A stretch of DNA of 64,000 nt from the IMG/VR virus record IMGVR_UViG_3300045988_181101. One strand, given 5' to 3'. The notes under the pieces were generated by a model that saw nothing but the letters and a program-made list of their open reading frames with translations, had not been told where the DNA came from and did not search any database. Of the stretch, positions 8,867-45,965 are shown in pieces. Every line of letters begins with the position of its first letter. Within the stretch, counting starts at the first letter, position 1. The position numbers and the translations under genes were made by a program. The DNA comes from a virus.

Positions 8867-9154
8867 TTACAATTTTATCTTTTGAGTGTAAATAAGTTCA
8901 CCTCTATATCCTCGTGAAATCAATTCATCCATTAATTGTCTTGGAGTGAAATCTTTTAATTTAGGATTACCATTTTCAAGATTACTTATTCTTTCTTTTC
9001 GTCTTGCAGTTCTCTTTTGAGCATAATTTTGGTTTTGCTTTTTTTGACAATCCCTACAATAAGCCTGAAGTCCATCAGGACGACTTGAATTTTTACTAAA
9101 AGAATCTAACGGTAAAATTCTTTCACAACGTGGGCAAAGTTTAGTTTCTTCCAT
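8867..9154 (-). CDS. stand-alone Zn-ribbon protein related to the N-terminal module of the HNH family in this window
   Basis: CPRCERILPLDSFSKNSSRPDGLQAYCRDCQKK parallels CSHCRRELSLDHFNKCKSCSDGLEAQCKDCKK of 32706..33446; no HNH domain follows. Confidence 0.55.
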   Translation of the reverse strand: MEETKLCPRCERILPLDSFSKNSSRPDGLQAYCRDCQKKQNQNYAQKRTARRKERISNLENGNPKLKDFTPRQLMDELISRGYRGELIYTQKIKL

Positions 9155-9782: not shown

Positions 9783-10563
9783 TGTTATTGCAACATTTCT
9801 TCAAATATCGAACATTTGATTCGATAAGTTCCATTTGTTCTTCTTTGATTTCTTTTTCAAAATAATCTGAAGGTGTAGGAATACGTTCGAACTTCTCTAC
9901 TTTTTCAATATCTTGTCCATTTATTGCTGCAAGTATTGGATAACAACTATCTGTAGACCTAAAGATTTTCTCATTCTTATAAGGAATAAATTCTTTAGGA
10001 TCACCTTGTCCAAGAAAATGAAGAGGTTTCGACAATGAATTGTATGATTTCAATTTTGATACAACTTTACTTCTTGCAAATGCAATGTTATCTGTATTCA
10101 TTATATGTGGAATAGCTTTCTTACTCATTCCAATACAAGAAACATATCTATTCCACATAAAGAATTTATAACAATCATACCAATCTTCCCAATTTTTACC
10201 TTGAGGACAAGCAAGAATTGTCGTATTTAACAACTTTCCTTTTAATCTTGCTTCTTTCATCCATTCTAAGAATTGATTGAAATTGATTAATGTCTGTTTT
10301 CTATCGAACAATACGTCAAGAGGTATTACTTCATTAGGTTCTAATTCAAGTGTCAATTGAAATAATTCTTCATTAGTCAATATTTCACCTTCTTCTCCTG
10401 TACCATTATCAAGTATAGTAAAACGACCTTGTTTGATTGCTTCCTTTACATATTCACGATATCGTTCATTTTTTTTATAATATTGACCTATAATATAGAG
10501 ATTATTATCTCCTAACTCACTTAAATTTAGGTGTTTCATAGGAGGAGTTAAAAATATTTTCAT
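9775..10563 (-). CDS. dpdA: DpdA-like (tRNA-guanine transglycosylase superfamily) DNA transglycosylase, putative
   Basis: KPLHFLGQGDPKEFI...IFRSTDSCYPILAA resembles the TGT-family LMGVG-P...FDCV-PT segment; ILDNGTGEEG earlier in the protein; folE, queD and queE co-occur in the same genome segment. Confidence 0.55.
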   Translation of the reverse strand: MKIFLTPPMKHLNLSELGDNNLYIIGQYYKKNERYREYVKEAIKQGRFTILDNGTGEEGEILTNEELFQLTLELEPNEVIPLDVLFDRKQTLINFNQFLEWMKEARLKGKLLNTTILACPQGKNWEDWYDCYKFFMWNRYVSCIGMSKKAIPHIMNTDNIAFARSKVVSKLKSYNSLSKPLHFLGQGDPKEFIPYKNEKIFRSTDSCYPILAAINGQDIEKVEKFERIPTPSDYFEKEIKEEQMELIESNVRYLKKCCNNNG

Positions 10564-11204
10564 TTTAAAGATTCTTTTATATTGTTAATAATTTCTTCAA
10601 CATTATCTGGAATTTTTGCATTTTTAATTCCTGAATTCTCATATCTCCACAATGGTTGTAAGTTTTTATAATTGAAACAAATTCTTAATTGTGTTTCATC
10701 TAATAAATTAAAATAACTTCTTGGAACAATATGATCAACTGCCCAACCATCTTTTCCACCATAATTTTCCCAACTCATTCCTTCTTTAAATTGAGATTCA
10801 AGATGTCGTTTTAAATGTTCGATTGAACAACCAAGAAGGTCGAGTATGCTTTTATACCAATTACATTTATCAGGATTAGCTGGAGGAACATTCAATGCTT
10901 TGTAGAGTCTATTCATATATAACATCGAAGTTCTATAATTTTCATCTAAAAATCTCTTTTTACTTCTTCGAGATTCTGCACCAGTTTCCTGTCGTTTTTG
11001 TCGAATCTTCTTTTGAGAAATTCTTCCTTTTTCCGATTGTCTATATTTTTTATCAGCTAATTTTCCTTTCTCTGAATATTTATAACGAAATTTAGCAATC
11101 ATAGAACATTCTTTGCAAATATAATATAAACCATCTTTATACGATCTACATTTAAAGAATTCTGATTCGTCTTTATTTTTACAACATTTAGGACAATATT
11201 TCAT
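10560..11204 (-). CDS. HNH homing endonuclease with N-terminal Zn ribbon (paralogue 1)
   Basis: CPKCCKNK...DGLYYICKECS; WENYGGKDGWAVDHIVP...NYKNLQPLWRYENSGIKN; free-standing between the dpdA-like gene and the T-fold/kinase gene. Confidence 0.85.
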   Translation of the reverse strand: MKYCPKCCKNKDESEFFKCRSYKDGLYYICKECSMIAKFRYKYSEKGKLADKKYRQSEKGRISQKKIRQKRQETGAESRRSKKRFLDENYRTSMLYMNRLYKALNVPPANPDKCNWYKSILDLLGCSIEHLKRHLESQFKEGMSWENYGGKDGWAVDHIVPRSYFNLLDETQLRICFNYKNLQPLWRYENSGIKNAKIPDNVEEIINNIKESLK

Positions 11205-21962: not shown

Positions 21963-22484
21963 TTAAAAATTCATTCTACGTCCATATTCAGCCATAAGTA
22001 AACTGTCAGAAAAGTTATCATCTTCATTCTTACATTTATTTGTTCTTCTAAGATCTACAGTAGGAAAAATTCTATGAGAAGCTAAGAAGCTCATTTTCTT
22101 TGTATCAATAACTTGAGTTTTACCTGTTGTAGAAGGTTTTGTTATCACATTAATTCCTCTAAACATTTCTTTTTGCCAAATCTTGGGATTTACTTTTGTA
22201 TAAGGTAACCCGATTGTAGCAATAACACCTTCGATTAATCCTGCTATAAATCCAAAGTTAAATGTTCCTTTTGCTGAACTACCGAAAATTGCGTGTATAT
22301 TCTCAATTATAACATGACAATTATCTTCATACTTAGAAAGGTTTAATAATGTATTACTTATTTCGACTGCATCTACATTTTTCGCATTTTTCAATAAAAA
22401 AAATGATTCTATGAATTTTCCAGTTTCATCTACAATCGAGATACAACCTTTAACACCGGGGTCTATACCTATATAATATTTCAT
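21963..22484 (-). CDS. RuvC-like Holliday junction resolvase
   Basis: YIGIDPGVKGCISIV (first acidic residue), VIIENIH (Glu), SDSLLMAEYG (C-terminal Asp); sits in the recombination module. Confidence 0.7.
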   Translation of the reverse strand: MKYYIGIDPGVKGCISIVDETGKFIESFFLLKNAKNVDAVEISNTLLNLSKYEDNCHVIIENIHAIFGSSAKGTFNFGFIAGLIEGVIATIGLPYTKVNPKIWQKEMFRGINVITKPSTTGKTQVIDTKKMSFLASHRIFPTVDLRRTNKCKNEDDNFSDSLLMAEYGRRMNF

Positions 22485-25400
22485 ACTTCTAATCTACTTA
22501 CTCCATTTTCTTTAATAACGCGAATTTGACTAATTTCTTCATTCAGTTTTGGTACATGAGTAACTATAAGAATAGGTTGCTTGAAGAAACTTATAGAAGT
22601 TGTAATATTCTCAATACCAAGTGAATCTACACTTTCCAATATTTCATCTATAAGTAAGAATTGCATTCCACCATATTTCTTAGTAGTGTTGATCATTGAT
22701 TGAAGAGCAAGTATAAGTGCTATTTCACAACGTGCTTTTTCACCTTCAGAGTAAAATGTAAATAATTCCATTTCATCTCTAAAAATGTAAGGTGTAATTT
22801 CTTCTTTAAGTTTACCGTTTGCACCTTTCTTAAAACCTTCAATCATTAATCTTAAATCACTACCCATTTTCTTTAAAATATCATTAGCAGAAAATTGAAT
22901 ATTCTTCAACTGTTCCATTGCAAGATACATTTTAAAATCCTTGAAACGTTGAGTCCATTGATTTATATTGAAAATATCATTTGTTTTATCTTCTATTTTT
23001 GAAGCAATTTTAGAAATAGATTTGTTTATACTTTCTATTCGTTTTTCAATATTAGATGTATCTTTTTCTTTTAATGGTTCTTTTAAAATTTCTTGAATAA
23101 GTTTTTCTTTATGTTCTATTGTCTCATAAGCTAACTCAACTTCAACTTTACCTGATTTTAAATTCTTATTCAATTTTAAAATCTGTGTATCAATAGTATC
23201 AATTGATTGAATTACGGTATTTAATTTATTTTTAATTGATCGTTGTGATTGTAATATAGAGTTTTCTTCATTTTCAGTCTCCTTTCTTAGAGAGTTATAT
23301 TCTTTTATAACTTCATCTAAATCTATTACAATTTGATTACATTCATCCTTTTCTTCTTTTTCTTTTTCAATAGAATTATTACACTTATCCTTTTCTTCTT
23401 TTAATTCGTCAATATTTTTATCACATTTAAGAAGGAATTCGTGATGACATTTAGGACAAACAATCACACCTGACAAGATATTATCTATAGAATTAAGAGT
23501 TGATTTCAATTCCCTTATTCTATCATTATGTTTATCAATTTCCTTTTCTGTAGACCTTTTATCTTCTTTATATTGATTTAAATCTTTATCAATTTCACTA
23601 TATACTTCTTGAAATCTATTTAAATCAATAGACGATAATTCTTTTTCAACCTTTTCTTTTATTTTTTCAAGATCCTCTTTCTCTTTAAATTTATCCTCGA
23701 GATCCTTTTGATAAGAACCTAATAAAATTTGCAAATCTTGAGTCTTATGATCAATTTTCTGAATTTCTTGTCGAATCTCTTCAATTCGCTCATTTCTTTC
23801 AGCTTCTTGATCTTTAGAATTTTCTTGTTCTAATTGTTCTTCATATACAGAAAGTTTGCCTGTCAATAAAGATTTTTCATCTTCTAATGAACGTTTTTCT
23901 TCAGTTATTTCATCAATTTTTTCTATAATAACATCCTTCGTTTTATCAATCTTTGAAAAATTGATAAAACGACTTATAAGAGCCAATTTTTCAGTATTAG
24001 ATGCTTTAAAGAAAGAATTATAATTATCTTTTGTTACAATATAATAAGATTTAGCATCTTCTGCAGAAATTTCAATCCAATTAGATACATATCTATTTCC
24101 ATCAAGAACTGTAGCACAATTTACTGGTGTAACCTTTTCATTTTCATCAATCAAAGATAATCTTAATGTAGACGAACCTTTTATACGTATTTCTCTTTCT
24201 ATAGATAGAGTTTGTTTACGTATAGGGCAATATATTTGAACACAAGTATAAGCTACATCAAATCCATATCGAATCAACTTTTTATCTACATTTCCACGTA
24301 AATTAACACCGTAAATACCATAAAATAAACCTTGACCAAAAAATGAATTATGTGTAACAATAAAATTGTTGGTTAAATATAATCCATCTTTATTAGAAAC
24401 GGTAATACATTGCATTTCTTCTTTTCCAACATATTGAATATCAACAATTCTCCGATCAACACAGTTCATTTTCTTCTCTTGCATCAATCTTTCAGATTTT
24501 CTTTTCAGATGAAAAAGATCAAGTCCTTTAGGAGGAACAATTCTTAACCGATAACTATCCTTACATTGAATTTTCTCTCCTTTTTTATTCTTATAAGAAG
24601 ATTTTAAATGAGAAACTTTATGACATAGACAACCGAGACTTCTTGCTATAAAAGCAACGTCTTCAATTAATTGTTTAGAAGTTAAAGTTAATTCTACCTT
24701 TCCTCTTTTATCAACATATCCGTCTGTATCTAAAAGGCCTCTAAGAAGTTCAAGTCTGACTTCTTTATTATTGTACATGTATTCCTTCGGAATAAATTTT
24801 TCAGAAGAATAAAGTCCAAATAAATTATATTTTTCTAAGATCTTCCAAAAAGCATCTTCTTGATTTTGAACTTTATTAATACGATAATCAAGTTTATTTG
24901 ATGATTGAACTAATTCAAATTTTTTATAAAAATTCAATCTATTTACAATCTCTTCGTCAGGTGAAGTAAAACCAATAATTTTTTGTGTAAATCCTCCATC
25001 ACCTAACAAAGCTCCTAAGGTGTAGGGGTCAATATCGACTTTTTGATAAGGATAATCTATACAATCGACTGTTGGCACTCTATATCTATAAGGATTACTA
25101 TTTCCACAATTACATTGTATAGATTGTTTCATTATATCTTTAAGCGATTTTATAACCCATTTCTTAGGAGTATAACATGAAGCAACTTTCCATAGATGCT
25201 CGTTATTACATTTGACTTTTGTTCCATCATTGAATGTAATTTCGTAACAATCAATGATTCCTTGAGGATGAATCGCTACTACTACTTGTTCTTTTCCATC
25301 AGAACCTAAAATTTTAGTTCCAATTCTAACATCTCTCATTTTTATAGATCCGGATAATGTCATAATATCAGAATCTAAACTCTGCGCTTTACCTCCACCA

Positions 25401-25522
25401 TTTGAAAGTTGATCATCCTGAGTTCTATTCTCTCCTATTACAGCAATAGGTTTGTGTACAAAATCATAATCAAGAGATTCAAATGGACCAAAATTCTTTA
25501 ATACTAATCTTCTTGGATACAT
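22481..25522 (-). CDS. Rad50/SbcC/T4 gp46-like recombination ATPase, interrupted by an intein
   Basis: N-extein ...GENRTQDDQLSNGGGK joins C-extein SFFGQGLFYGIYG to rebuild Walker A NGGGKS. Long coiled coil with central CPKC zinc-hook-like motif. C-terminus has the signature/Walker B region LLIDEILESVD. Confidence 0.85.
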   Translation of the reverse strand: MYPRRLVLKNFGPFESLDYDFVHKPIAVIGENRTQDDQLSNGGGKAQSLDSDIMTLSGSIKMRDVRIGTKILGSDGKEQVVVAIHPQGIIDCYEITFNDGTKVKCNNEHLWKVASCYTPKKWVIKSLKDIMKQSIQCNCGNSNPYRYRVPTVDCIDYPYQKVDIDPYTLGALLGDGGFTQKIIGFTSPDEEIVNRLNFYKKFELVQSSNKLDYRINKVQNQEDAFWKILEKYNLFGLYSSEKFIPKEYMYNNKEVRLELLRGLLDTDGYVDKRGKVELTLTSKQLIEDVAFIARSLGCLCHKVSHLKSSYKNKKGEKIQCKDSYRLRIVPPKGLDLFHLKRKSERLMQEKKMNCVDRRIVDIQYVGKEEMQCITVSNKDGLYLTNNFIVTHNSFFGQGLFYGIYGVNLRGNVDKKLIRYGFDVAYTCVQIYCPIRKQTLSIEREIRIKGSSTLRLSLIDENEKVTPVNCATVLDGNRYVSNWIEISAEDAKSYYIVTKDNYNSFFKASNTEKLALISRFINFSKIDKTKDVIIEKIDEITEEKRSLEDEKSLLTGKLSVYEEQLEQENSKDQEAERNERIEEIRQEIQKIDHKTQDLQILLGSYQKDLEDKFKEKEDLEKIKEKVEKELSSIDLNRFQEVYSEIDKDLNQYKEDKRSTEKEIDKHNDRIRELKSTLNSIDNILSGVIVCPKCHHEFLLKCDKNIDELKEEKDKCNNSIEKEKEEKDECNQIVIDLDEVIKEYNSLRKETENEENSILQSQRSIKNKLNTVIQSIDTIDTQILKLNKNLKSGKVEVELAYETIEHKEKLIQEILKEPLKEKDTSNIEKRIESINKSISKIASKIEDKTNDIFNINQWTQRFKDFKMYLAMEQLKNIQFSANDILKKMGSDLRLMIEGFKKGANGKLKEEITPYIFRDEMELFTFYSEGEKARCEIALILALQSMINTTKKYGGMQFLLIDEILESVDSLGIENITTSISFFKQPILIVTHVPKLNEEISQIRVIKENGVSRLEV
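24347..25387 (-). mobile_element. intein (347 aa) with LAGLIDADG homing-endonuclease domain; class 3-like (Ala1, Trp-Cys-Thr triplet)
   Basis: Starts AQSLDSDIMTLSGSIKM and ends FIVTHN followed by S. Block B is NNEHLW, block F MQCITV, block G VTHN. LAGLIDADG motifs are LGALLGDGGF and LLRGLLDTDGYV. Confidence 0.8.
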
Positions 25523-30641: not shown

Positions 30642-32654
30642 TTATGTTAAAACAGTAAATAACGAATTTATTGTCGTCTGTAAAATGTATTCTTGTCTAA
30701 ACTTATCCCATTGAATATAACCATTAAGAAGTAAAATGTTCCCCTTACTATTTCTTAATGATTCTGCAACTTCTTCAAATAATTCAGGAAATACATAGAC
30801 GTTTATAAAATCATAATTACTTTCTAATGTTATAGTAGCAAAAAGACCTTTCTTAGATTTTTTCTCTACTAAATCTACAACATATCCACCTATAGAAGCT
30901 AAGCGATATTTTGTAGTGCCTGTCCAGTATTTAACTTGACTAATATCGTAGAAATCATGTTCGTCATCATAAAGTTGAGGAATATGATAATTTCTTACAA
31001 GATATTCATAATCAAAAAATGCAAGTCCTGATACCTTCTTTTGTTGTAAAGTCCACCACCAATCATTTTTCTCTTTACGAGCTTTAATAATATTAGTCAA
31101 AAGATCTTTATCTTCAAGAATCTTCACTTTCTTATTTTCTCGATAGGATTCAATCAATTTCAATCTTTCATGAGGACGTTCTATATTCTCCAATTTATCA
31201 AACGCACCACTATAGATGAGATTTTCAATAACAGATTTGTTTACAGGAGATCCTTTTATTACACATCTATCTATAAATTCATCAAGTGAAAAGAATTCTC
31301 CATTCTCATGTCTTTCCTTTGAAATAAATTCTTGAGCTTTTTCACCACATTGTTTAACTGAATTCAAAGCCCAATACATACTTCCTGTTTTGACATCTGA
31401 AACAATATTTATATCAGACTTATTTATATCTACAGTGCGAAGTTCAATGTTACCTGATTTCTGAATTTCATTAACATAAAAAGGATAATCTTTACTTTCA
31501 GCATAGGAGAATGTTACAGACCAAAACTCAATAGGATAATGCACTTTCAACCAAAGGCAATTATATCCATTTCGCGAATAAGCGATTGCATGGGATTTGT
31601 TAAACGCATAGGCACCAAATTTCACCATTTGATCCCAAAGTTCTTTTGCATAAGATTCTTCTACACCAAATTTATTGATATAACCTTTTACAAACTTTTC
31701 TTCATACGATTGAAGTTTTTGTAAATTTTTTTTACCAATAGCTTTTCGGACACCATCAGTGGTCTCTAAGTCAAAATCAGCAAGATACTGACAGAGACGC
31801 ATTATATCTTCTTGGTACACTATAAAGTTTTTTGACTTTGATAAAACTTTTTCTGCACCTATTGGAGCTTCTTTATCAATTTCTCCTTTCTTAGCAAGAA
31901 TGTATTCATTGTGAAAATTATTCTCAATAGGTCCAGGACGATATAAAGCTGCACATATCCCCATCTCATCAAGACTTTCAGGCTGCATCTGAACGCAATA
32001 AGACGAAAGTCCTTTTGCACCGAAGTGGAAAATATTCGATAAAAATCCTTTCTTTATATATTCAAAGACTATTCTATCATCTAAAGGAATATCTTTATAT
32101 AAATCAAGTTTTATACCGTGATTTTTATAAATCAAATCAAGTATATCAGATAATTGTGATAATTGTCTGATACCTAATATATCTTCTTTCAAAAATCCAG
32201 CATCTTCAATTTCTGAACCTTCCCATTGTGTAACCATTAAACCTTGTTGTTTCTTGATAGGAGTCCATTGAGCAGAGGTTTTCTCATCAGGTAATACTAC
32301 TGTACCACAAGCATGAATAGAAGATGTCTTCGGTGTATTAAGAATAATCATCATATCATCAAAGAGTTCTGTGTTATCTTTGACAAATTCTCTCATTTCT
32401 TTATCCTTACAAATAATTCTAAAGAAATCCTCTGCACTTTCCATCCCTTCTTCATCTCTTAATCTTGATGTAAATCGTCTTACTGCTCCAATAGGTAAGT
32501 TGTGACAGCGAGCAAGGTCTGTAATGGCAGCTTTAAGTTTTAATGTACCATAAGTTCCAAGAGAAACGACTTGTGTTTCGCCAAATCGACTCTCCATGTA
32601 TTTCTTTACTTTTTCTCGTCCTTCAGACGAAAAATCCGAATCGATTTCACTTAG
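30642..32654 (-). CDS. dnaE: DNA polymerase III alpha subunit, C-terminal part (palm catalytic Asp pair onward); 5' boundary approximate
   Basis: The frame is open upstream of the track ATG back to a TAG at 32664-32666 and encodes (SPG)LSEIDSDFSSEGREKVKKYMESRFGETQVVSLGTYGTLK. This is the PDxDxDF...GT segment of DnaE. Later motifs include ALYRPGP, FNKSHA and an OB-fold-like C-terminus. Confidence 0.85.
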   Translation of the reverse strand, partial: LSEIDSDFSSEGREKVKKYMESRFGETQVVSLGTYGTLKLKAAITDLARCHNLPIGAVRRFTSRLRDEEGMESAEDFFRIICKDKEMREFVKDNTELFDDMMIILNTPKTSSIHACGTVVLPDEKTSAQWTPIKKQQGLMVTQWEGSEIEDAGFLKEDILGIRQLSQLSDILDLIYKNHGIKLDLYKDIPLDDRIVFEYIKKGFLSNIFHFGAKGLSSYCVQMQPESLDEMGICAALYRPGPIENNFHNEYILAKKGEIDKEAPIGAEKVLSKSKNFIVYQEDIMRLCQYLADFDLETTDGVRKAIGKKNLQKLQSYEEKFVKGYINKFGVEESYAKELWDQMVKFGAYAFNKSHAIAYSRNGYNCLWLKVHYPIEFWSVTFSYAESKDYPFYVNEIQKSGNIELRTVDINKSDINIVSDVKTGSMYWALNSVKQCGEKAQEFISKERHENGEFFSLDEFIDRCVIKGSPVNKSVIENLIYSGAFDKLENIERPHERLKLIESYRENKKVKILEDKDLLTNIIKARKEKNDWWWTLQQKKVSGLAFFDYEYLVRNYHIPQLYDDEHDFYDISQVKYWTGTTKYRLASIGGYVVDLVEKKSKKGLFATITLESNYDFINVYVFPELFEEVAESLRNSKGNILLLNGYIQWDKFRQEYILQTTINSLFTVLT

Positions 32655-33649
32655 TCCGGGAGACTACCTAATGACGTAGTCTCCCGGATCTCCTTTCTTA
32701 AATCTTTAATTGTTATCATTATTTATTTCTTGTTTTAAAAATTCAACCAATTCTTCAACGTTGTCAGGAACCTTATTTGATTTTTTAATATTATCAACTT
32801 TCCATAACGGCTGTAGATTCCTGTAATTAAGACAGATACGTTGATTTTCTTCTTTAGTCAGATCAAAGTAAGATATAGGAATAATATGATCAATCTGCCA
32901 ACCGTCTTTTCCACCATAATTCTCCCACGTCATTCCAGGTTCGAATTGTTGTTCGAGATGAACTTTCAGTTCACCAAGAGAACAACCAATTAAATCAAAT
33001 GTACTGTTTTTCTTCGATCCATTTAATCTCGTTCTCAATCCGTTTCTCAAAAGGTGAGCTAATTTAAAATTCAAATCTTCCTTTCTCCTTCTTCGACTAT
33101 TAATCGATCTTTTTAATCGACCTTGATCTGATTTTAAATATAAATTCGATTGTAAAATTCTCTTCTCTTTATTCTTTTCGTAATAATCTTTATCATATAA
33201 AGACCGTCTTTCTTTATTTTCTCTTCCCCTCTCTAATATCACTTCTTTGTGATTTTGATAATAAAGTTTATCGCTTTTCTTTCGATTTTCAGATTTTAAA
33301 TACAATTTAGTATATTCTTTCTTGCAATCTTTACACTGAGCTTCTAATCCATCTGAACAGCTCTTACATTTGTTAAAATGATCAAGTGAAAGTTCTCGTC
33401 TACAATGACTGCAAATCTTCAATCCTGTCTCAAAATTAGCTTTCATACTTTATATAAAATTTTTCATTTTTCTTTATATGTTTATTCGTTATAATCCATC
33501 AATTCATCATCTTCTTGTAATTCACCAGCCTTAACAATCATCTTTTCTTTATTACGTAAAATTCGCACAAAATCAGTAGATTTGATACAAATAGGTGAGG
33601 AACTATTTTCGTTTATAACTACCTCTTCAACTTTATCGTGACGTATCAA
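32655..33649 (-). mobile_element. HNH-carrying insertion of about 1 kb splitting dnaE: candidate group I intron (boundaries approximate)
   Basis: DnaE homology stops at ...LFERFLTTGR (R codon at 33650-33652) and resumes at LSEIDSDF (32654 downward). The interval holds HNH ORF 32706..33446 and a 13-bp GC-rich hairpin at 32655-32688. Confidence 0.5.
32706..33446 (-). CDS. HNH homing endonuclease with N-terminal Zn ribbon (paralogue 2), inside dnaE
   Basis: CSHCRRELSLDHFNKCKSCSDGLEAQCKDCKK; WENYGGKDGWQIDHIIP...NYRNLQPLWKVDNIKKSN. Confidence 0.85.
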   Translation of the reverse strand: MKANFETGLKICSHCRRELSLDHFNKCKSCSDGLEAQCKDCKKEYTKLYLKSENRKKSDKLYYQNHKEVILERGRENKERRSLYDKDYYEKNKEKRILQSNLYLKSDQGRLKRSINSRRRRKEDLNFKLAHLLRNGLRTRLNGSKKNSTFDLIGCSLGELKVHLEQQFEPGMTWENYGGKDGWQIDHIIPISYFDLTKEENQRICLNYRNLQPLWKVDNIKKSNKVPDNVEELVEFLKQEINNDNN

Positions 33650-35752: not shown

Positions 35753-35760
35753 TAAAGGTC
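35753..35760 (-). promoter_or_regulatory. variant box GACCTTTAGG
   Basis: Minus strand GTAGACCTTTAGGTC, 46 nt upstream of ATG 35706; the same 13-mer core occurs at 5501-5515. Confidence 0.3.
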
Positions 35761-36359
35761 TACATTTTCTCATTACGTTGCAACATTTGGACATGAGAAA
35801 ATATTATCTCTTTTAATTGTTTAAGTCTCTGTTCTACGGAACCTGATATAGTCTGATAAGGAATGCTATTTAATTGAAGAGTTGATCGAATAATCAGATC
35901 GATCTCTTTCTGAAATTCTTTTTTCATCGACCTTATACCGTCACCAACTACATTGAATTCAATAGGGAAATATATCACCGTTCCTAAATCATTCTTTCTT
36001 TCTTTTAAGATAGAAAGTTGTCTTTCTGTTTCAATTCGAGTAAACTGTTTTTCTTCTTCAGACATTTCTTTGAAACTTAGTATCCATAAAGTATATGAAA
36101 CTACATCAATGATACATCTATCACTTATCAGACTTTTCTTTTGATCGAGGACTTTCATATACTCATCAAAAATAAGTTTCTGAGACTTCCAATCACCTTC
36201 TTCGTTGATTGTAACTTTCTTTTTCTTTAAAAGATCTCTTACTTTCTCATTGCTGAATAAAAACTCTTTAAAATCAGGATCTTTTTTAGCTTCCTCAAAA
36301 AGAGTGGTTTTGCCGGTCCCTTGAGAACCGGCAAATTGAATTTTCAAATTATCTTTCAT
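35760..36359 (-). CDS. P-loop NTPase, NadR/AAA_28-like kinase fold
   Basis: Walker A FAGSQGTGKTTL; later DRCIIDVVSYT; assignment by eye. Confidence 0.45.
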   Translation of the reverse strand: MKDNLKIQFAGSQGTGKTTLFEEAKKDPDFKEFLFSNEKVRDLLKKKKVTINEEGDWKSQKLIFDEYMKVLDQKKSLISDRCIIDVVSYTLWILSFKEMSEEEKQFTRIETERQLSILKERKNDLGTVIYFPIEFNVVGDGIRSMKKEFQKEIDLIIRSTLQLNSIPYQTISGSVEQRLKQLKEIIFSHVQMLQRNEKM

Positions 36360-36370
36360 TATTTTGATAA

Positions 36371-36910
36371 TTATCTATTATCTCCTGAACCATGTATCAC
36401 CCCTCTACGAGCTCTCGAAGCAAGTTTATTAATATTACCTTGAGCAATCTCATTCATTGGTTTATCAAACACAATTGATGCAAGATCAACAAAACTCTGT
36501 AAAAGCTCATCCCATCTTTGTTGAATCTTTTCTCTTCTACTTTCAGGGAAAATACCAAAATCATTCTTTTCTGTATCCCAATCATCTCTCAAATATTTCT
36601 TCATTTGTTCGCAAATCGCTCCTGAATGAATAGATACTTTAAGGAGAGCTGCTGTAGGATTTTCACTTGGTTCCGGCCAATCAATTCTTTCTTTTAAATT
36701 GAATTCGGTTCGAATTGCTGCCATACACCATAAACAATCTTGAAATTCTGCTTCAATTGCATCAATTGGAGCTTCTTCATTAAGTTTTTCATAAAATTCT
36801 CCGACCTCTCCGGCAAGCCCGAGTGTAACATAAATCAATGCTATCTTTGGAGAATACATTTTTGTTGTGCTTGCTAAATTCTCGTAAGATTGATAATTCG
36901 TAACTTCCAT
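36371..36910 (-). CDS. mazG: MazG-like nucleoside triphosphate pyrophosphohydrolase
   Basis: GLAGEVGEFYEKLNEE and EFQDCLWCMA (EXXE...D-LW metal-binding pattern of all-alpha NTP-PPases). Confidence 0.75.
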   Translation of the reverse strand: MEVTNYQSYENLASTTKMYSPKIALIYVTLGLAGEVGEFYEKLNEEAPIDAIEAEFQDCLWCMAAIRTEFNLKERIDWPEPSENPTAALLKVSIHSGAICEQMKKYLRDDWDTEKNDFGIFPESRREKIQQRWDELLQSFVDLASIVFDKPMNEIAQGNINKLASRARRGVIHGSGDNR

Positions 36911-37625
36911 TTACTTCTTTATTAATTTGTTCTACAATAAATAAATAATTCTTAGGTAATCGATCGTTTTTAGATCCATTTTCTTTCGACCACATTGGTT
37001 GACAGTTTCTATAATTAAAACAAATAAGAATCTCTTTTTCATTTGTTAAATCAAACCATCTAATAGGAACAATATGATCAACTGCCCAACCATCTTTTCC
37101 ACCATAATTGTCCCAGGTCATTCCAGGCTCAAATTGACTTTCTAAATGTTGTTTAAATTCATCAATGGAACAACCGAGAAGATCGATGGTGTGACAATCA
37201 TTATATCCTTTTGTAAGATGTCTGTGAACTCGATTTCTAAGTCTTTTTATCAATCGATTGTTTACATTAGAATTGATTCTTTCTAATTCTTTTACTGCTA
37301 TCTGTTCTTTATGAGTTTGACGATACTTAATATTCGCTCTTTTATAAGATTCAGATTTTGCATTTAATCTTGCTCTTTGTCGACAAAGAGCATCGTATTC
37401 AGGATCAATTTGACGTTTAATAGCTTTAGAAATTGCTGCTCTTTTACTTAAAACATCTTTTCCGGTTTTCTCTATTCTACGTTGATTTTGTTTCTTTTTG
37501 CATTCCTTACAACAAAAATGAAATCCGTCAGGACTATTCTTCCAATGATGAAATTCAGACAAAGGTTTTTCTTGCTTACAATATCTACAAACTTTAACTC
37601 CTTCCGTTTTAATTTCTGAATCCAC
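36789..37625 (-). CDS. HNH homing endonuclease with N-terminal Zn ribbon (paralogue 3), GTG start, 3' end reads into mazG
   Basis: CRYCKQEKPLSEFHHWKNSPDGFHFCCKECKK; WDNYGGKDGWAVDHIVP...NYRNCQPMWSKENGSKN; the last ~40 codons overlap mazG in another frame. Confidence 0.8.
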   Translation of the reverse strand: MDSEIKTEGVKVCRYCKQEKPLSEFHHWKNSPDGFHFCCKECKKKQNQRRIEKTGKDVLSKRAAISKAIKRQIDPEYDALCRQRARLNAKSESYKRANIKYRQTHKEQIAVKELERINSNVNNRLIKRLRNRVHRHLTKGYNDCHTIDLLGCSIDEFKQHLESQFEPGMTWDNYGGKDGWAVDHIVPIRWFDLTNEKEILICFNYRNCQPMWSKENGSKNDRLPKNYLFIVEQINKEVNGSYELSILREFSKHNKNVFSKDSIDLCYTRACRRGRRIL

Positions 37626-37626
37626 T

Positions 37627-38271
37627 TTATTTATGATTAATTTTCCAAATTTGGATTTGTCTTAAAAACTCATCTCGACTATTCATAGAATTATCTAAAA
37701 ATAATCCTGAACAATAATTTGTTACCATAGAAGAGTTATCTTCTGCGCCTCTCATACTTACACACATATGTTCAGCTTCAATATAAACAGCAATTCCTCT
37801 AACAGAATCACCGAACACTTCTTTAAGATAATCATGAATCTGTTTTGTCAACTGTTCCTGAAGTTGAGGTCTTTTTGCAAACCAATGAACAATTCTATTT
37901 AATTTAGAAAGTCCTACGACATCTCCGCCTTCTTGTGGAATGTAAGAAATGTGGCAAACTCCGCAAAAAGGTAAAAAATGATGGCTACACAATGAATTAA
38001 CTTCAATACCCATTTCTGTTACCATCCCTGTATAACCAGTTCCTGGGAACGTTGCAATTCTTGGTCTTTCTTCATAAACTCCTGAAGTAATTTCATTTAC
38101 CATCATCTTTGCAACACGATAAGGAGTTTTTACCATATTAGGATCATTCTTCCAATCATATCCTAATGCTTCAAGAAACTTACCGTAGGCTTCTTCTGCA
38201 TTTTTCATCATTTCCTCTTTTCTTTCTTTAGAAAGAACAATGTTTTGACCTGCTTTTAATTTAAAATCCAT
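37627..38271 (-). CDS. folE: GTP cyclohydrolase I
   Basis: SLCSHHFLPFCGVCHISYIP and VVGLSKLNRIVHWFAKRPQLQEQLT, the FolE type I signatures. Confidence 0.95.
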   Translation of the reverse strand: MDFKLKAGQNIVLSKERKEEMMKNAEEAYGKFLEALGYDWKNDPNMVKTPYRVAKMMVNEITSGVYEERPRIATFPGTGYTGMVTEMGIEVNSLCSHHFLPFCGVCHISYIPQEGGDVVGLSKLNRIVHWFAKRPQLQEQLTKQIHDYLKEVFGDSVRGIAVYIEAEHMCVSMRGAEDNSSMVTNYCSGLFLDNSMNSRDEFLRQIQIWKINHK

Positions 38272-38295
38272 ATTATTTATTCCTTTCTTTTTATA

Positions 38296-39594
38296 TCAAA
38301 CTCCTCTTTTTGTTCCCCAAATTATAATTTGCAATCTATCTGAATAGTGATATCCATGTTCAGCACAATATTCTGCTACCATTTGTCTTTTTTTCAATAA
38401 TTGTTCTTCATTGATACCTTCAGGCATTAAACAAACAGAACCTTTTTTAGGCTTCAGCTCTTTCAAAAGATTTTCAATTTCTTCAAAATCTTCTCTTTTT
38501 GATACAACAAACTTTAACTGATAATTTTGAGCATATTTCATCCATTTTTTAAAATTATCAATTCTAATTCTATTCTTTTCATGAATATTTTCATACTTAG
38601 TTCCTATTGGAGTAGAATCTCTTAATTTAGGTGAAATTGATACTAAATCTATCATTTTCATTAAAGATTCGTCTAAACAAACAGTTCCATTTGTTTCTAA
38701 AGTTATAAGTTTCTTATTATTTTTAGCAATAATTATAAGTTCTTCAATTCTATTGGAAATGCAAGGTTCGCCTCCAGATAAAACGATGTGTCTTATTAAT
38801 GGGTTTTCTTTGATAAGATTTTTAACGTCTAAATTGGAATAAGAACCTTTTTCCGGTTTCCAAGATGTAAATGATGTATCACACCATCTACATTTTAAAT
38901 TACATCCTATCGTTCTAATAAATAAAGAAGGTATTCCTGCATATCTACCTTCACCTTGAATTGATTTAAATATTTCTGAAAGATATTTTTCCTCAAATAT
39001 TTCTTTCTTTAAAAATTCGACTAATTCTTCAACATTATTCGGAACTTTTGCTCCTTTAGAATCATTTTCTTTTGCCCATAACGGTTGTAAATTCCTGTAA
39101 TTGAAACAGATACGTTGATTCTCCTCTTTTGTTAAATCAAAATAAGAACAAGGAATAATATGATCGACATGCCATTTTCCATAATTATCCCAACTCATTC
39201 CTTCTTTAAATTGAGATTCAAGATGTCGTTTTAAATGTTCGATTGAACAACCAAGAAGATCGAGTGTATGTGTCGATTTTCGATTGTTTTTACATTTTAA
39301 AGCATTATAACAACGAGACCTTAGAATTTGAGTTAAATTCAAATTTAAATTATTTTTAACCTTTTCTCGTCTTTTTCTATCGTCTTCTTTGGCATATCCT
39401 AAAACTCGTCTTCTTATTGTCTGCTTTCTTTGAATTCTTTTACCACTTTCAGAACGATTAAATTCACTTTTACATTTTTTACAATAATTTTCTAATCCAT
39501 CGTTTGAAGATTTATTTTTTCGGAAACAATCTAATGATAATTTCTTTTTACAACGACTACAAATCTTCATTCCTTTTTCAAAATCAGCTTTCAT
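38296..39594 (-). CDS. queE: in-frame fusion: HNH endonuclease (paralogue 4, aa 1 to ~200) plus 7-carboxy-7-deazaguanine synthase QueE (aa ~203-432)
   Basis: HNH part: CSRCKKKLSLDCFRKNKSSNDGLENYCKKCK...HVDHIIP...NYRNLQPLWAKEN...VPNNVEELVEFLKKEI. It continues without stop or ATG into YLSEIFKSIQGEGRYAGIPSLFIRTIGCNLKCRWCDT (QueE radical-SAM cluster motif) and LSGGEP. Confidence 0.85.
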   Translation of the reverse strand: MKADFEKGMKICSRCKKKLSLDCFRKNKSSNDGLENYCKKCKSEFNRSESGKRIQRKQTIRRRVLGYAKEDDRKRREKVKNNLNLNLTQILRSRCYNALKCKNNRKSTHTLDLLGCSIEHLKRHLESQFKEGMSWDNYGKWHVDHIIPCSYFDLTKEENQRICFNYRNLQPLWAKENDSKGAKVPNNVEELVEFLKKEIFEEKYLSEIFKSIQGEGRYAGIPSLFIRTIGCNLKCRWCDTSFTSWKPEKGSYSNLDVKNLIKENPLIRHIVLSGGEPCISNRIEELIIIAKNNKKLITLETNGTVCLDESLMKMIDLVSISPKLRDSTPIGTKYENIHEKNRIRIDNFKKWMKYAQNYQLKFVVSKREDFEEIENLLKELKPKKGSVCLMPEGINEEQLLKKRQMVAEYCAEHGYHYSDRLQIIIWGTKRGV

Positions 39595-39599
39595 TATTA

Positions 39600-40193
39600 T
39601 TATTTAATTTGTTTTTCTACTTTAGGATTAATAAAATATTTTCCATCAGATTCTTTAGTATGACGAAAGAAACTATGTAATTCTTCTGACCAATCATTTA
39701 ATACACCAACAGAATAAGCTGTAGATAAATCTACAGGAAGTAAATCAAAATCATTTATTGTTGCTTCAGCATAACCTGTTGCAGTTTCATGATAAATTAC
39801 CTTATTACATTTTACATTCCCTTCGCCATTATTAAATTCTGTTGCTTTAATCATTGCATTAATCATATAACAAATATACAATGCAAGATTTTCAGCAGAA
39901 GGACTTATAGGAAGTTCAATCCAACGATCGCACCATTTTTTCATATCGTTCTTATATTCTTCCTTGTCTTTATTCCAAATCAGCATACAATGATCAAAAG
40001 AATCGATCCATTGTCCTATATTTTTCTTAATCAAAGAGAAATCTACAATCATTCCTCCATTATCAAGTTTATCTGAAGTTAAAAATACTTCAATGACTGC
40101 TGAATGACCATGAATACTTTTTCGACAACGATTTGTTGAACAATTGCGTACAATATGCGCTCCTTCAACTTTAAATAATTTTCTAATCTGCAT
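39600..40193 (-). CDS. queD: 6-carboxy-5,6,7,8-tetrahydropterin synthase
   Basis: FKVEGAHIV...CRKSIHGHSAVIEV (Cys...His-Gly-His QueD motif). Confidence 0.8.
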   Translation of the reverse strand: MQIRKLFKVEGAHIVRNCSTNRCRKSIHGHSAVIEVFLTSDKLDNGGMIVDFSLIKKNIGQWIDSFDHCMLIWNKDKEEYKNDMKKWCDRWIELPISPSAENLALYICYMINAMIKATEFNNGEGNVKCNKVIYHETATGYAEATINDFDLLPVDLSTAYSVGVLNDWSEELHSFFRHTKESDGKYFINPKVEKQIK

Positions 40194-43226: not shown

Positions 43227-45965
43227 TTAAATCAAATTTATTCCTACTTGAACTTCTTTCTCACACTCTCTCAACGAGTTAATCGAAATAAAGGTACTCA
43301 TACAAACATCATCGTGTCCCGAAGCAGCTTCAAGTTTACCATTATCACTTTTAAACGTTATAGATGAGAATTCACCAAACATTAAGTCAACTGCTTGTCT
43401 CGTTTCTCCTACAGCATAAGGACATTTTAATTGACCTCTTTCAAACATTGCTGAAAGACTTGGTAATCCTGTATAAAGATCCTTCTTATTTCCTTCAGTC
43501 GTAGTAAAAGTTTCAATATTTTTCAATCCTCTTTCTCTTGCTAACGCAGATAATATGGACTGAAATCCGTTTGATTCACATACAATTTTATTAGGTCTAA
43601 ATAATCTATCAAGTTGAACAATCTTATCTATCTGCTCATTATGAGACATTCCTTTTTGTCTGTAATAAGTAAGTAGATAATAATTCTTCATTGAATCAAT
43701 ACCCCAAACTGAATATACAGTATAGTCTGCACCAATATTACCTGAAACAGCAAAGTCTACACCTATATGAACTCTTTGTAATTTTATAGGATAATCATCT
43801 ATAGATGTAGCGAATCTTATATTTTCCATTCCTACAGTTGATCTCATCAAATATTCATAAGGAAATATTGTAGATGAATCACTAATAGGTACTACAAGAT
43901 ACTCACGATTAAACACGATTGTTCCAAGTTCTTCTCTCTTTGCAAGAATCTGATCAAACGTATATCTATCAGGAGCAAGTGGTCTACCATCAGGAAATAT
44001 AACTGGATATTCAAAACAGTAAAATCGCTTATCAGCTTTCAATACTTGATATAATTCATTTGGTGCAGAAGAATATGGTGTTCCACAAACAATAAAATAT
44101 CCATAAGGCTCTACGATAGGCTCAATTGTTCCTTTTAGAAGTTCTTTAAGTTTTTCTCTTTGTTCGTCTGAATATAAAGAAGATTCATCAGGCATATCAT
44201 CACATAATACAGCTCCTACGTGTAGACCGCGAATGAAACCATCGCGACCACGAATATGTAATGTGCTTCCTGTTTCAGTTGTTATACCTGTTTCTCCAAT
44301 AGATGCTTTACCATTTGGATTAAGTTTCTCAGCTATCAAATCATTTGTTTCAATTTCCTCTCTTACTTTTTTAATCTGAACTTTCGCAAGTGTCATCGTA
44401 GATGTGATATAACACGTTTCTTTTCTGTTTTGATTATCTACAGTATTTTGTCTCCAGGGAACAGGTCGACAATAACTCCATAATCTCCAAAGAATAAATG
44501 CATAAGACCACATATAACTATTATGAACAACAGTTCCATCACTGAGTAGAAATTTATGATCACCATCTAAAGCAAATCCATAATAGTCTCCTTCTCCTGC
44601 TTGAGTAATAGTTAAAGCTGATTTATTACCTTGTTGAACTTTATCATATTGTTGAGCTTGCTTTCTCTTTACTTTAGTAGGTATTGTCCAAATTTTACCG
44701 GATATATAAATTCTGTAGAATTTATAATTTTTATAACTATATTCACCAATTTGTATATTTTTTCTCACATGTGTTTCTATAGAAGTACATTGAAATCCAA
44801 GTGACAAAGCAAGATAACGAATTTGTTCTATAAGCTCATATTTCTTTAAAGATAATTCAAACGAACATGAATTTCTCGAAGTTCCTTTTCGTTTTAAATA
44901 TTTTTGTTCATTTAAATGACCGTCCGAATCCAAGATACCTGCTAATAATTGAAGTCTCTGTTGACGAGAACCTTTCATATAAACATCAGGAATATGCTTG
45001 TTTTGAATTAAATTCAAATCTCTCAATTTAGATGATAAATCTACTCCGGAAATTCCGTTTAACATTTCTTTTTCTTTATAAGAATATTTTCCTCCTATCC
45101 TTTTACTATATTCTTTAATTGCATTTCTTACTTCTATATCCGGATTTGTTATGTAATAATTGCAATTCGTACCATCACCAAGCCAAAGTCCAAGCCAATA
45201 TGGATCAATAGAAAGTTCTTTTTCAGGAAGTTCCCATCCATCAATCTTTCTGTATCCAAAAATTTTCTTCCGACCATAACCTGCATGTTTAGGGATGTCT
45301 TCAACAGGAATGTCTTTATAAATTCTTTTTGTTACTCTTTTATTATCTATTGTTGTTGGTCGATCCCAAATACAACAAACCAAATGACCTTCATTCACAT
45401 AATAATCTTTAGCATAAGTTTGATGAACTTTATACATCTGCGACCGACCTCTATGAAGTTGAAGAACTGTTCTTGGAGTATTATCTATTCCCATCACTTG
45501 ATCTCCAACTTTAATATCTTGAACAGGCTTTAAAGAACCATCATACATAACTACTAACTCGTTGATACTGAGACATTTACCTGAACCGCGACCACAAAGA
45601 TAACAGCTCCACGGAAACAGTTGTGTCATATTACCCCATTCAACATTTCTCCAACCCATCCTAAAATTAGGGAGCATTGTCAAAATGAAGTAATTCAATG
45701 AATAAATCTTCAAAGTTGTATCCATTGAAGCTTTTACATTCTCTATATAATCAAGACTTTCAGAATCAAGTGTTCTACCAAGATACAGTGTTTTTTCAGT
45801 TTGAGTAAGTATTTCCTTTAACATTTTATCAACATCATTATTATAACCTTCAAGAAGTTGATTTAATGCTTTAGGAGATAGATCCTCAATTATTTTATCT
45901 ACAGTATCATATAGATAATTCATTTGATTTACTGAAAGTAAATCTTTACCATCTAATGTTAACAT
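43227..45965 (-). CDS. terL: terminase large subunit, interrupted by an intein
   Basis: The exteins join as CYLCGRGSGK + SYMWSYAFILW (Walker A GRGSGKS). Walker B is AVLCDDMPDE. The C-terminal RNase H-like nuclease has IGVDFAVSG, VCESNGFQ and GHDDVCMS. Confidence 0.85.
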   Translation of the reverse strand: MLTLDGKDLLSVNQMNYLYDTVDKIIEDLSPKALNQLLEGYNNDVDKMLKEILTQTEKTLYLGRTLDSESLDYIENVKASMDTTLKIYSLNYFILTMLPNFRMGWRNVEWGNMTQLFPWSCYLCGRGSGKCLSINELVVMYDGSLKPVQDIKVGDQVMGIDNTPRTVLQLHRGRSQMYKVHQTYAKDYYVNEGHLVCCIWDRPTTIDNKRVTKRIYKDIPVEDIPKHAGYGRKKIFGYRKIDGWELPEKELSIDPYWLGLWLGDGTNCNYYITNPDIEVRNAIKEYSKRIGGKYSYKEKEMLNGISGVDLSSKLRDLNLIQNKHIPDVYMKGSRQQRLQLLAGILDSDGHLNEQKYLKRKGTSRNSCSFELSLKKYELIEQIRYLALSLGFQCTSIETHVRKNIQIGEYSYKNYKFYRIYISGKIWTIPTKVKRKQAQQYDKVQQGNKSALTITQAGEGDYYGFALDGDHKFLLSDGTVVHNSYMWSYAFILWRLWSYCRPVPWRQNTVDNQNRKETCYITSTMTLAKVQIKKVREEIETNDLIAEKLNPNGKASIGETGITTETGSTLHIRGRDGFIRGLHVGAVLCDDMPDESSLYSDEQREKLKELLKGTIEPIVEPYGYFIVCGTPYSSAPNELYQVLKADKRFYCFEYPVIFPDGRPLAPDRYTFDQILAKREELGTIVFNREYLVVPISDSSTIFPYEYLMRSTVGMENIRFATSIDDYPIKLQRVHIGVDFAVSGNIGADYTVYSVWGIDSMKNYYLLTYYRQKGMSHNEQIDKIVQLDRLFRPNKIVCESNGFQSILSALARERGLKNIETFTTTEGNKKDLYTGLPSLSAMFERGQLKCPYAVGETRQAVDLMFGEFSSITFKSDNGKLEAASGHDDVCMSTFISINSLRECEKEVQVGINLI
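44520..45575 (-). mobile_element. intein (352 aa, class 1: Cys1...His-Asn / +1 Ser) with LAGLIDADG domain
   Basis: CLSINELVVMYDGSLKPVQDIKVGD...LLSDGTVVHN followed by S; LAGLIDADG motifs WLGLWLGDGT and LAGILDSDGH; Cys1 codon at 45573-45575, Asn codon at 44520-44522. Confidence 0.9.

Follow-up and report, generated by a model that had tools for sequence, protein, structure and literature searches.

In the 64,000-nucleotide (nt) stretch of viral DNA analysed here (IMG/VR record IMGVR_UViG_3300045988_181101, hereafter the window), an HNH homing-endonuclease gene and queE, the gene for the radical-SAM enzyme 7-carboxy-7-deazaguanine synthase, form a single in-frame fusion. The fusion occupies the open reading frame (ORF) at 38296..39594, from which both the stop codon of the endonuclease and the start codon of queE are gone; an earlier note on this DNA had proposed as much, and every relative that we sampled agrees. 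We regard the fused ORF as almost certainly genuine, and we think it probable that QueE is made from it as an HNH-QueE chimera of 432 amino acids (aa). The phage that carries the fusion is a gut phage with a genome of about 105 kb and translation signals of the Bacteroidota type. Judged from its sequence, the fused HNH is an ordinary free-standing HNH homing endonuclease that was captured by its neighbour gene, and neither an intein nor a new mechanism or system.

The fused reading frame and its relatives

The features of the fusion are given below, together with the evidence for each. A3 and A4 are alignments of the QueE and HNH families, respectively, which were built separately.

38296..39594, minus strand: fused HNH::QueE ORF, 432 aa with an ATG start; full-length orthologues in protein clusters P0001-P0005
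38998..39594, minus strand: HNH homing-endonuclease module, aa 1-199 (phrog_1035, AlphaFold2, BFVD Foldseek)
39472..39561, minus strand: CxxC...CxxC zinc-finger-like N-terminal element (C12, C15, C38, C41), with near-invariant cysteine columns in A4 and a confident fold
39055..39201, minus strand: HNH catalytic core, aa 132-180 (GMSW..W141..D144-H145..N168..N177..K180), invariant columns in A4
38998..39018, minus strand: conserved 21-nt 3′ end of the HNH cassette, GAATTTTTAAAGAAAGAAATA (EFLKKEI), identical or with one change in free-standing paralogues
38994..38997, minus strand: junction TTTG, where paralogues have one nucleotide and the ATG of the downstream gene (TATG or AATG); presumably the former queE start
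38296..38997, minus strand: QueE, aa 200-432 plus the stop codon, without a start codon of its own (phrog_2076, PDB, AlphaFold2)
38881..38904, minus strand: radical-SAM cluster motif C231-x3-C235-x2-C238, invariant columns in A3

The start ATG of the fused ORF lies 5 nt past the stop codon of queD, and the ORF includes KVPNNVEELVEFLKKEIFEEKYLSEIFKSIQGEGRYAG, the sequence that the earlier note had quoted correctly. The HNH module (aa 1-199) is joined directly to a complete QueE (aa 200-432), and in the AlphaFold2 model the final HNH helix (188-201) is followed by a linker of about three residues and then by the first strand of QueE (205-212). The reported lack of an ATG ahead of the QueE core extends to GTG and TTG as well, since in-frame codons of these three kinds occur at positions 1, 9, 85 and 133 and then only from 312 onward. 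The JGI annotation describes the 432-aa protein as ‘7-carboxy-7-deazaguanine synthase’ and nothing more. Tryptic peptides across the chimera junction would be EIFEEK or, with a missed cleavage, KEIFEEKYLSEIFK.

Residues 6-201 match phrog_1035 (endonuclease VII/HNH) with an E value of 7.8e-22, and the module also matches the ‘HNH endonuclease’ family phrog_2255 (E 5.9e-5), while the Pfam HNH models gave no match to the fused protein at E<=0.01. Modelled alone with AlphaFold2, the HNH module reached a predicted local distance difference test score (pLDDT) of 93, and a BFVD Foldseek search with this model returned 56 matches at E<=1e-3, many of them named HNH, HNHc or intron endonuclease (best 1.4e-17). 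The top matches of a fold search against the PDB were HNH domains (Cas9, Hpy99I and McrA), all at E>0.1. The zinc-finger-like element is presumed to be the DNA-binding part of the module. In the core, D144-H145, N168 and N177 are invariant across the 53 HNH family members in A4, and the window copy, which is one of them, keeps every family-invariant residue. Alignment A2, which mixed fused proteins with HNH-only and QueE-only ones and was made for structure prediction, was discarded because the N-terminal halves of QueE proteins landed on the HNH region.

The earlier note had also pointed to a small deletion in this HNH copy. Compared with the NYGGRTGW or NYGGKDGW of the other fusion lineages, the 3-aa gap (NYG---KWHVDH) is real, and among fusions it is confined to the lineage of the window. 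The significance suggested for it is not supported, as loops of this length are common across the family. Free-standing members often have the short loop too (P0007, P0019, P0046, P0096 and P0101), and given that all invariant residues are also present, we see no sign of decay in it.

Residues 204-432 match the QueE-like family phrog_2076 (E 6.4e-54) along nearly its whole profile (positions 14-247 of 247), the Pfam model Radical_SAM matches at aa 227-378, and a sequence search of the PDB found three solved QueE enzymes (5tgs at E 7.5e-16, 6nhl and 4njg). The five best NCBIfam matches are all QueE models, with 52-92 bits against cut-offs of 200-300 (best 92 against 260). All 20 QueE-family-invariant residues are kept, including the CxxxCxxC and QGEG motifs, and the substrate motif residues E207, F209, S211, I212, Q213, G214, E215 and G216 are invariant or nearly so in A3. 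The QueE part of the AlphaFold2 model has a pLDDT above 90. By its motifs, profiles and neighbours, the module is predicted to be an intact 7-carboxy-7-deazaguanine synthase, which would convert CPH4 to CDG. In the solved structures, residues 205-207 of the query (L205-E207) align to chain positions 25-29; if these chains are read as tagged, with about 20 extra N-terminal residues, as we assume, a free-standing QueE would begin at about residue 197-201 here. Such tagged constructs also suggest that N-terminal additions are tolerated.

Among 5.8 billion protein clusters, five align to the query at 100% coverage, with identities of 99, 94, 94, 82 and 79% and lengths of 432-435 aa. About 25 distinct full-length sequences (432-436 aa) come from four 90%-identity clusters (P0001, P0003, P0004 and P0005; 99, 94, 82 and 79% identical to the window), and the fusion is carried by at least 80 contigs, which stem from JGI/IMG, ENA, Logan and NCBI. 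The junction in all of them reads ...VEFLK(K/Q)EI-F-(E/G)-E-(K/R)-YLSEIF..., and at the nucleotide level its versions are set apart by synonymous and conservative changes, which makes them independent observations rather than one error copied many times. The resequencing of the junction for which the earlier note had called is in effect supplied by these many independent assemblies, which uphold the fusion. An exhaustive HMMER scan of 1.84 billion representatives at 50% identity found one cluster with both domains (764 bits), the rest being single-domain proteins at no more than 230 bits. Neither these representatives nor the 5.8 billion clusters contain a free-standing QueE that is more than 50% identical to the QueE of the fusion, and megablast found nothing among GenBank phages, none of whose records has both domains. 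The earlier note had further proposed to look for an ATG of queE's own where the HNH gene is absent, and such a start exists in L003, a syntenic but distant phage with a QueE of 50% identity: the TGA of queD is followed by a T and then by ATG GAT AAG of queE (MDKEKKFLSELF). Since this relative without the HNH is only distant, and no free-standing QueE is closer than 50%, the fusion predates the diversification of the sampled clade.

Translation of QueE and the alternatives

All large genes of the window lie on the minus strand, and ATG starts every one of the 48 genes that we tabulated, only 4 of which have a Shine-Dalgarno-like tetramer. The window has 29% GC, the regions upstream of its genes are A/T-rich, with a T at position -1 in 33 of the 48, and the nearest cultured relatives by DnaB are phages of Bacteroides or Chryseobacterium. 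From these signals, the initiation signature of the phage is of the Bacteroidota type, and Shine-Dalgarno sites appear not to be used. In systems of this kind, the choice of the start relies on an AUG in an unstructured, A-rich region, and it is therefore most likely that QueE is made as a chimera from the HNH start codon. QueE would then be translated from the endonuclease ATG as part of one 432-aa polypeptide, its synthesis would depend on read-through of the endonuclease, and the HNH ORF, which is fixed across the clade, could be neither lost nor broken and would be locked in. A single polypeptide would also account for the intact endonuclease frame of all the roughly 25 sampled alleles.

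Nei-Gojobori estimates of the ratio of nonsynonymous to synonymous substitution (dN/dS) are 0.02-0.05 for QueE (dS 0.14-0.58). For the whole HNH module, in like-for-like pairs, they are 0.13 (window versus L004, dS 0.33) and 0.10 (L001 versus L002, dS 0.77), and for the HNH catalytic core (aa 132-199) they are 0.04-0.22 over all pairs. With such low ratios, and with all the family-invariant residues of both domains present, neither half is decaying. The constraint on the amino acids of the HNH exceeds what an open frame would need; the domain is probably still a working nuclease or, at the least, has to fold well. Gene conversion by a paralogue in the recent past was considered as the source of the low ratios and rejected, as even P0007, the nearest free-standing paralogue, has a DNA identity of only 81-84% to the core of the fusion. 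The first 131 residues fall into two types, one shared by the window, L004 and L007 and the other by L001 and L002, while QueE groups the window with L002 and L001 with L004. These conflicting groupings indicate recombination inside the fused ORF, and the exchanged segment is probably the DNA-binding part of the HNH.

The earlier note had left three fates open for QueE, namely a 432-aa chimera, initiation at a non-canonical codon such as ATA at Ile199, or a queE disabled by the insertion, and of these the chimera is the best supported. That the fusion is an artefact of assembly or sequencing, say through an indel within a run rich in A or through the collapse of paralogous HNH copies, is extremely improbable. 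The junction is indeed A/T-rich with homopolymer runs, and paralogous HNH cores can mislead assemblers, as in contig L015 (Logan ERR14033636, 2568 nt), which joins the 3′ end of queD and the 5′ half of the queE-site HNH to the 3′ half of the dnaE-site HNH and dnaE-C, and which is either an assembler jump across these cores or a defective recombinant genome. However, the same frame and junction recur, with synonymous or conservative differences, in lineages that are 79-99% identical, in contigs from four data sources and different assemblers, and with constant synteny of queD, the fusion and folE. We give just as little credence to the idea that the insertion inactivated queE and left its QueE part as a decaying remnant. 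QueE has no start codon of its own, and its NCBIfam score lies far below the 260-bit equivalog cut-off, but its dN/dS stays at 0.02-0.05 with dS up to 0.58, its 20 invariant residues and its predicted fold are in place, and the flanking queD and folE are intact; a disabled queE is thus rejected.

Two other proposals accept a working QueE and differ in how it would come to be free of the HNH. In one, a separate QueE arises by internal initiation at a near-cognate codon (ATA/ATT 199, ATA 208 or ATT 212), and the chimera is minor or irrelevant. These in-frame isoleucine codons sit where free-standing QueE proteins begin, and the A/T-richness of the 21 nt ahead of them matches that found before true starts in the same phage. 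We nevertheless consider such initiation unlikely, given that all 48 tabulated genes use ATG and that codon 199, which is ATA in the window, as had been claimed, is ATA in four lineages and ATT in L001; no canonical start is conserved at the junction. A start at 208 or 212 would cut into the conserved SEIF-x-S-I-QGEG motif, and nothing would keep the HNH frame open, yet none of the roughly 25 sequences is broken and the HNH is under purifying selection. In the other, the chimera is translated and then cleaved in the short linker by a protease of the host or the phage, giving a free HNH and a free QueE. In fungal mitochondria, group I intron endonuclease ORFs that are in frame with the upstream exon are proteolytically processed, and an analogous step here would be compatible with all the data. 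Against it, Pfam and PHROG profiles found no Hint, Intein_splicing or LAGLIDADG domain in the fusion and no protease domain in aa 1-204, the linker of only about three residues lies between a helix and the first strand of QueE, and no conserved cleavage motif is known. We consider cleavage as unlikely as internal initiation. Two candidate signals at the junction were also rejected: a Shine-Dalgarno-like GAGGA, which varies among relatives (GAAGA, GGAGA and GAAGAG), in a phage that does not use such sites, and a TTG start in the +1 frame followed by a -1 shift on GAAAAAT, where the A-run is missing in L002 and the heptamer is imperfect.

Several points weigh against translation of QueE as the chimera. 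The accumulation of a 432-aa product and its QueE activity are predictions from sequence, and the near-cognate codons just named could allow low-level initiation. The N-terminal third of the HNH has been exchanged between lineages, and its apparent constraint could be partly imported from paralogues. One protein, P0255 (300 aa), begins at Met133 and is possibly a variant with a disrupted N-terminal HNH. Finally, the mutational order that we propose for the fusion in the following section (ATG>TTG and a 1-nt indel) is a reconstruction, with no intermediate among the sampled genomes.

Origin of the fusion and comparison with known systems

Free-standing members of the HNH family end on the same helix as the fused module (..VEELVEFLK-K/Q-E-I/V), and 1 nt later the ATG of the downstream gene follows in the +1 frame. 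Thus, the cassette end in the family reads ...GAATTTTTAAAGAAAGAAAT(A/T), one nucleotide and then the ATG of the displaced gene. The frame of the free-standing endonucleases stays open into the next gene and closes only at an out-of-frame stop 4-41 codons inside it, which means that the cassette has no stop codon of its own. For instance, the HNH at the mazG site of the window has no stop at its natural end (..NKEV, 36912), the ATG of the mazG-like gene (36910) comes 1 nt later, and the endonuclease frame continues for 41 codons out of frame. The junctions at four sites compare as follows.

P0007 site: ...GAATTTTTAAAGAAAGAAATA (..GAAATA), then TATGG
dnaE site of L002: ...GAAATT, then TATGT
mazG site of the window: ...GAAGTA, then AATGG
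Fusion: the same 21 nt (ATA>ATT in L001), then TTTGA(A/G)GAA, or TTTGGAGAA in L001

In L001 and in the dnaE-site copy of L002, the 21-nt end differs by one change, ATA>ATT. These junctions suggest how the fusion may have arisen. An HNH cassette would have landed in the gap of a few nucleotides between queD and queE, and a change of the queE ATG to TTG, plus the loss of 1 nt, would have brought the endonuclease frame into register with queE. Indeed, ‘T ATG GAA GAA AAA TAT’ (M-E-E-K-Y-L-S-E-I-F) minus 1 nt and with ATG>TTG gives the arrangement of the fusion, in which the former queE start would now be an out-of-frame TTG.

Free-standing phage HNH homing endonucleases (the T4 Mob family, I-HmuI-like enzymes and PHROG 1035/2255) offer the closest comparison. 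They have the same HNH (beta-beta-alpha-metal) core with a separate DNA-binding region, the same multiple diverged paralogues per genome, the same sites beside or inside DNA-metabolism genes, the same variable presence and the same tight packing of ORFs against adjacent genes. The queE-site copy differs from them in that it has no stop codon, is apparently translated with its neighbour and is fixed in the clade. Endonuclease ORFs in T4 overlap upstream genes (PMC2988022), that is, at their 5′ end, whereas the overlap in the present HNH family is at the 3′ end and with a downstream start codon. P0046 shows a further arrangement of the same endonuclease family, two HNH units fused in tandem (HNH-HNH).

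Inteins and in-frame intron endonuclease ORFs resemble the fusion in being translated in frame with a host gene whose expression needs the intact endonuclease frame. Unlike them, the fusion has neither a Hint or splicing domain nor an intron, the HNH is an N-terminal extension rather than an internal insertion, and no mechanism for its removal is evident. The QueE homologues P0239 and P0249 of other lineages do have inteins (LAGLIDADG/Hint), located at the radical-SAM motif. ‘Fractured genes’, such as the split nrdA and DNA polymerase genes of T4-like phages (Dassa et al. 2009, PMC2677866), likewise have an endonuclease at a gene boundary of an important enzyme, an arrangement that the dnaE of the window also shows. 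The fusion is their converse, since there one gene is split into two polypeptides and here two genes are merged into one. Compared with canonical QueE (B. subtilis 5TH5/5TGS and E. coli 6NHL), the CxxxCxxC motif and the N-terminal EIF-x-S-I-QGEG are the same, and the differences are the extra 199-aa N-terminal nuclease domain and the missing start codon. The gene order queD-queE-folE is likewise shared with known phage 7-deazaguanine clusters. Gat-QueC, a known fusion in the 7-deazaguanine pathway, joins two metabolic enzymes and not a mobile nuclease. In the searchable literature, which does not cover most subscription journals, we found no description of an HNH-QueE protein or of another translational fusion between an endonuclease and a host gene.

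In the usual view, homing endonuclease genes pass in turn from invasion to fixation, decay and loss. Here, the HNH has been kept intact long after fixation (synonymous divergence up to about 0.5-1), apparently since the start codon of a useful neighbour vanished into the HNH ORF, which would be a simple route by which a selfish element becomes irremovable. A different possibility is that the HNH has been co-opted, with a nuclease tied to QueE, the enzyme by which GTP is committed to 7-deazaguanine synthesis, attacking unmodified DNA of the host or of competing phages and sparing the modified genome of its own phage. If true, this would be a phage-borne unit resembling restriction-modification in one polypeptide, and the idea is compatible with the clear purifying selection on the HNH, which persists long after fixation, at a stage where a purely selfish endonuclease has no more empty sites to enter and should be decaying. 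Nevertheless, we consider co-option quite unlikely, and it is much more likely that the endonuclease escaped decay by becoming the only translation start of QueE. Domain fusions through loss of a stop codon are common in general, and we regard this case as a clean example of lock-in and a curiosity of mobile-element evolution that opens no long-standing question. For enzymology, it predicts that QueE tolerates an N-terminal domain of 200 residues. For annotation, HNH cassettes that lack a stop and lie flush with the next ATG explain odd overlaps and long ORFs in these gut phages.

Neighbouring genes and other HNH copies

The neighbours of the fusion and the free-standing HNH paralogues of the window are the following.

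39600..40193, minus strand: queD (6-carboxytetrahydropterin synthase), upstream neighbour (Pfam PTPS E 6.7e-21; TIGR03367)
37627..38271, minus strand: folE (GTP cyclohydrolase I), downstream neighbour (Pfam E 2.2e-50; NCBIfam)
36789..37625, minus strand: free-standing HNH paralogue after folE (mazG site), whose homologous part ends at 36912
32706..33446, minus strand: free-standing HNH paralogue inserted at the dnaE split site (profile searches)
10560..11204, minus strand: free-standing HNH paralogue whose stop overlaps the ATG of the next gene (ATGA)

The gene order in the window is queD, HNH::queE, folE, a mazG-like gene, an AAA_28 kinase-like gene and dnaE, and this order, with the fusion between queD and folE, is kept in L001, L002 and L004-L007. 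Within 35760-40193, the deazaguanine cluster consists of folE, queD and queE only, adjoined by the MazG-like pyrophosphatase and the AAA_28 kinase-like gene. The same FolE/QueD/QueE set occurs in the Cellulophaga phage phiST, which carries 7-deazaguanine (PMC10516641), and, as in phiST, neither QueC nor DpdA was found among the roughly 40 ORFs scanned in the window, which covers 64 kb of the genome of about 105 kb.

Altogether, the window holds four HNH paralogues and one fragment. The queE-site HNH is present in every genome of the clade that we sampled and is the sole fixed copy; it has its own ATG and no stop, and it reads into QueE instead of forming the separate ORF of a free-standing gene. 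Presence and absence among syntenic genomes are shown by the mazG-site and dnaE-site paralogues and not, within the clade, by the queE-site copy. Among the compared loci, an HNH between folE and mazG occurs only in the window. At the dnaE site, the window has an HNH, L002 has a TnsA-like nuclease with an HNH further on, L001, L005 and L007 have only a 1-nt frameshift, and L004 has an intact dnaE. The TnsA-like ORF of L002 (L002:11414-12319; Pfam Tn7_TnsA-like_N, weak) lies where the window has its HNH, which indicates that different nuclease families use the same dnaE site. P0273 (206 aa, 95% identical to the HNH of P0004 and with a dnaE-site tail) was considered as evidence of recent mobility and proved unusable, as its contig, L015, is chimeric through the paralogous core. 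A fragment at 8996-9142 resembles the zinc-finger N-terminus of the HNH family (aa 10-58, 43% identity) and is probably the remnant of a fifth copy.

The HNH paralogue at 32706..33446 ends, as the earlier note had stated, in VPDNVEELVEFLKQEINNDNN followed by its stop codon. Between it and the dnaE-C ORF (30642..32597), at 32597-32706 on the minus strand, the dnaE gene (Pol III alpha) of the window is apparently broken in three places. The last codons of this HNH hold the ATG of a short ORF, MITIKDLRKEIRETTSLGSLPD followed by a stop, which is made of dnaE residues. The catalytic IDSDF motif resumes in another frame after 8 extra nt (TAAGTGAA; GSLPDIDTDF in L004), and the listed dnaE-C ORF begins only past this motif. 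A perfect 12-bp hairpin (CCGGGAGACTAC-N8-GTAGTCTCCCGG) lies directly ahead of a stop in this region, and the same sequence is found in L015. The dnaE of the window could involve recoding, be a pseudogene or encode a three-piece polymerase. While dnaE is one intact ORF in L004, a 1-nt difference in L001, L005 and L007 (GATTATGATAACGATTAA versus GATTATGAAACGATTAA) gives overlapping N- and C-terminal ORFs, and this split (L001:11380-11450 and equivalents) is exactly where the window carries its HNH.

Two other genes of the window may contain inserted elements. The large terminase (43227-45965) has 912 aa, as in L002, against 901 aa in L005 and 560 aa in L001 and L004, and because its orthologues in L002 and L005 match Hom_end_hint/LAGLIDADG, the terminase of the window probably carries an intein. 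In the SbcC-like protein of 1013 aa (22481-25522), residues 40-430 match unrelated PHROG families (terminase, primase and DnaC-like), a pattern that is typical of a shared intein or an inserted mobile domain.

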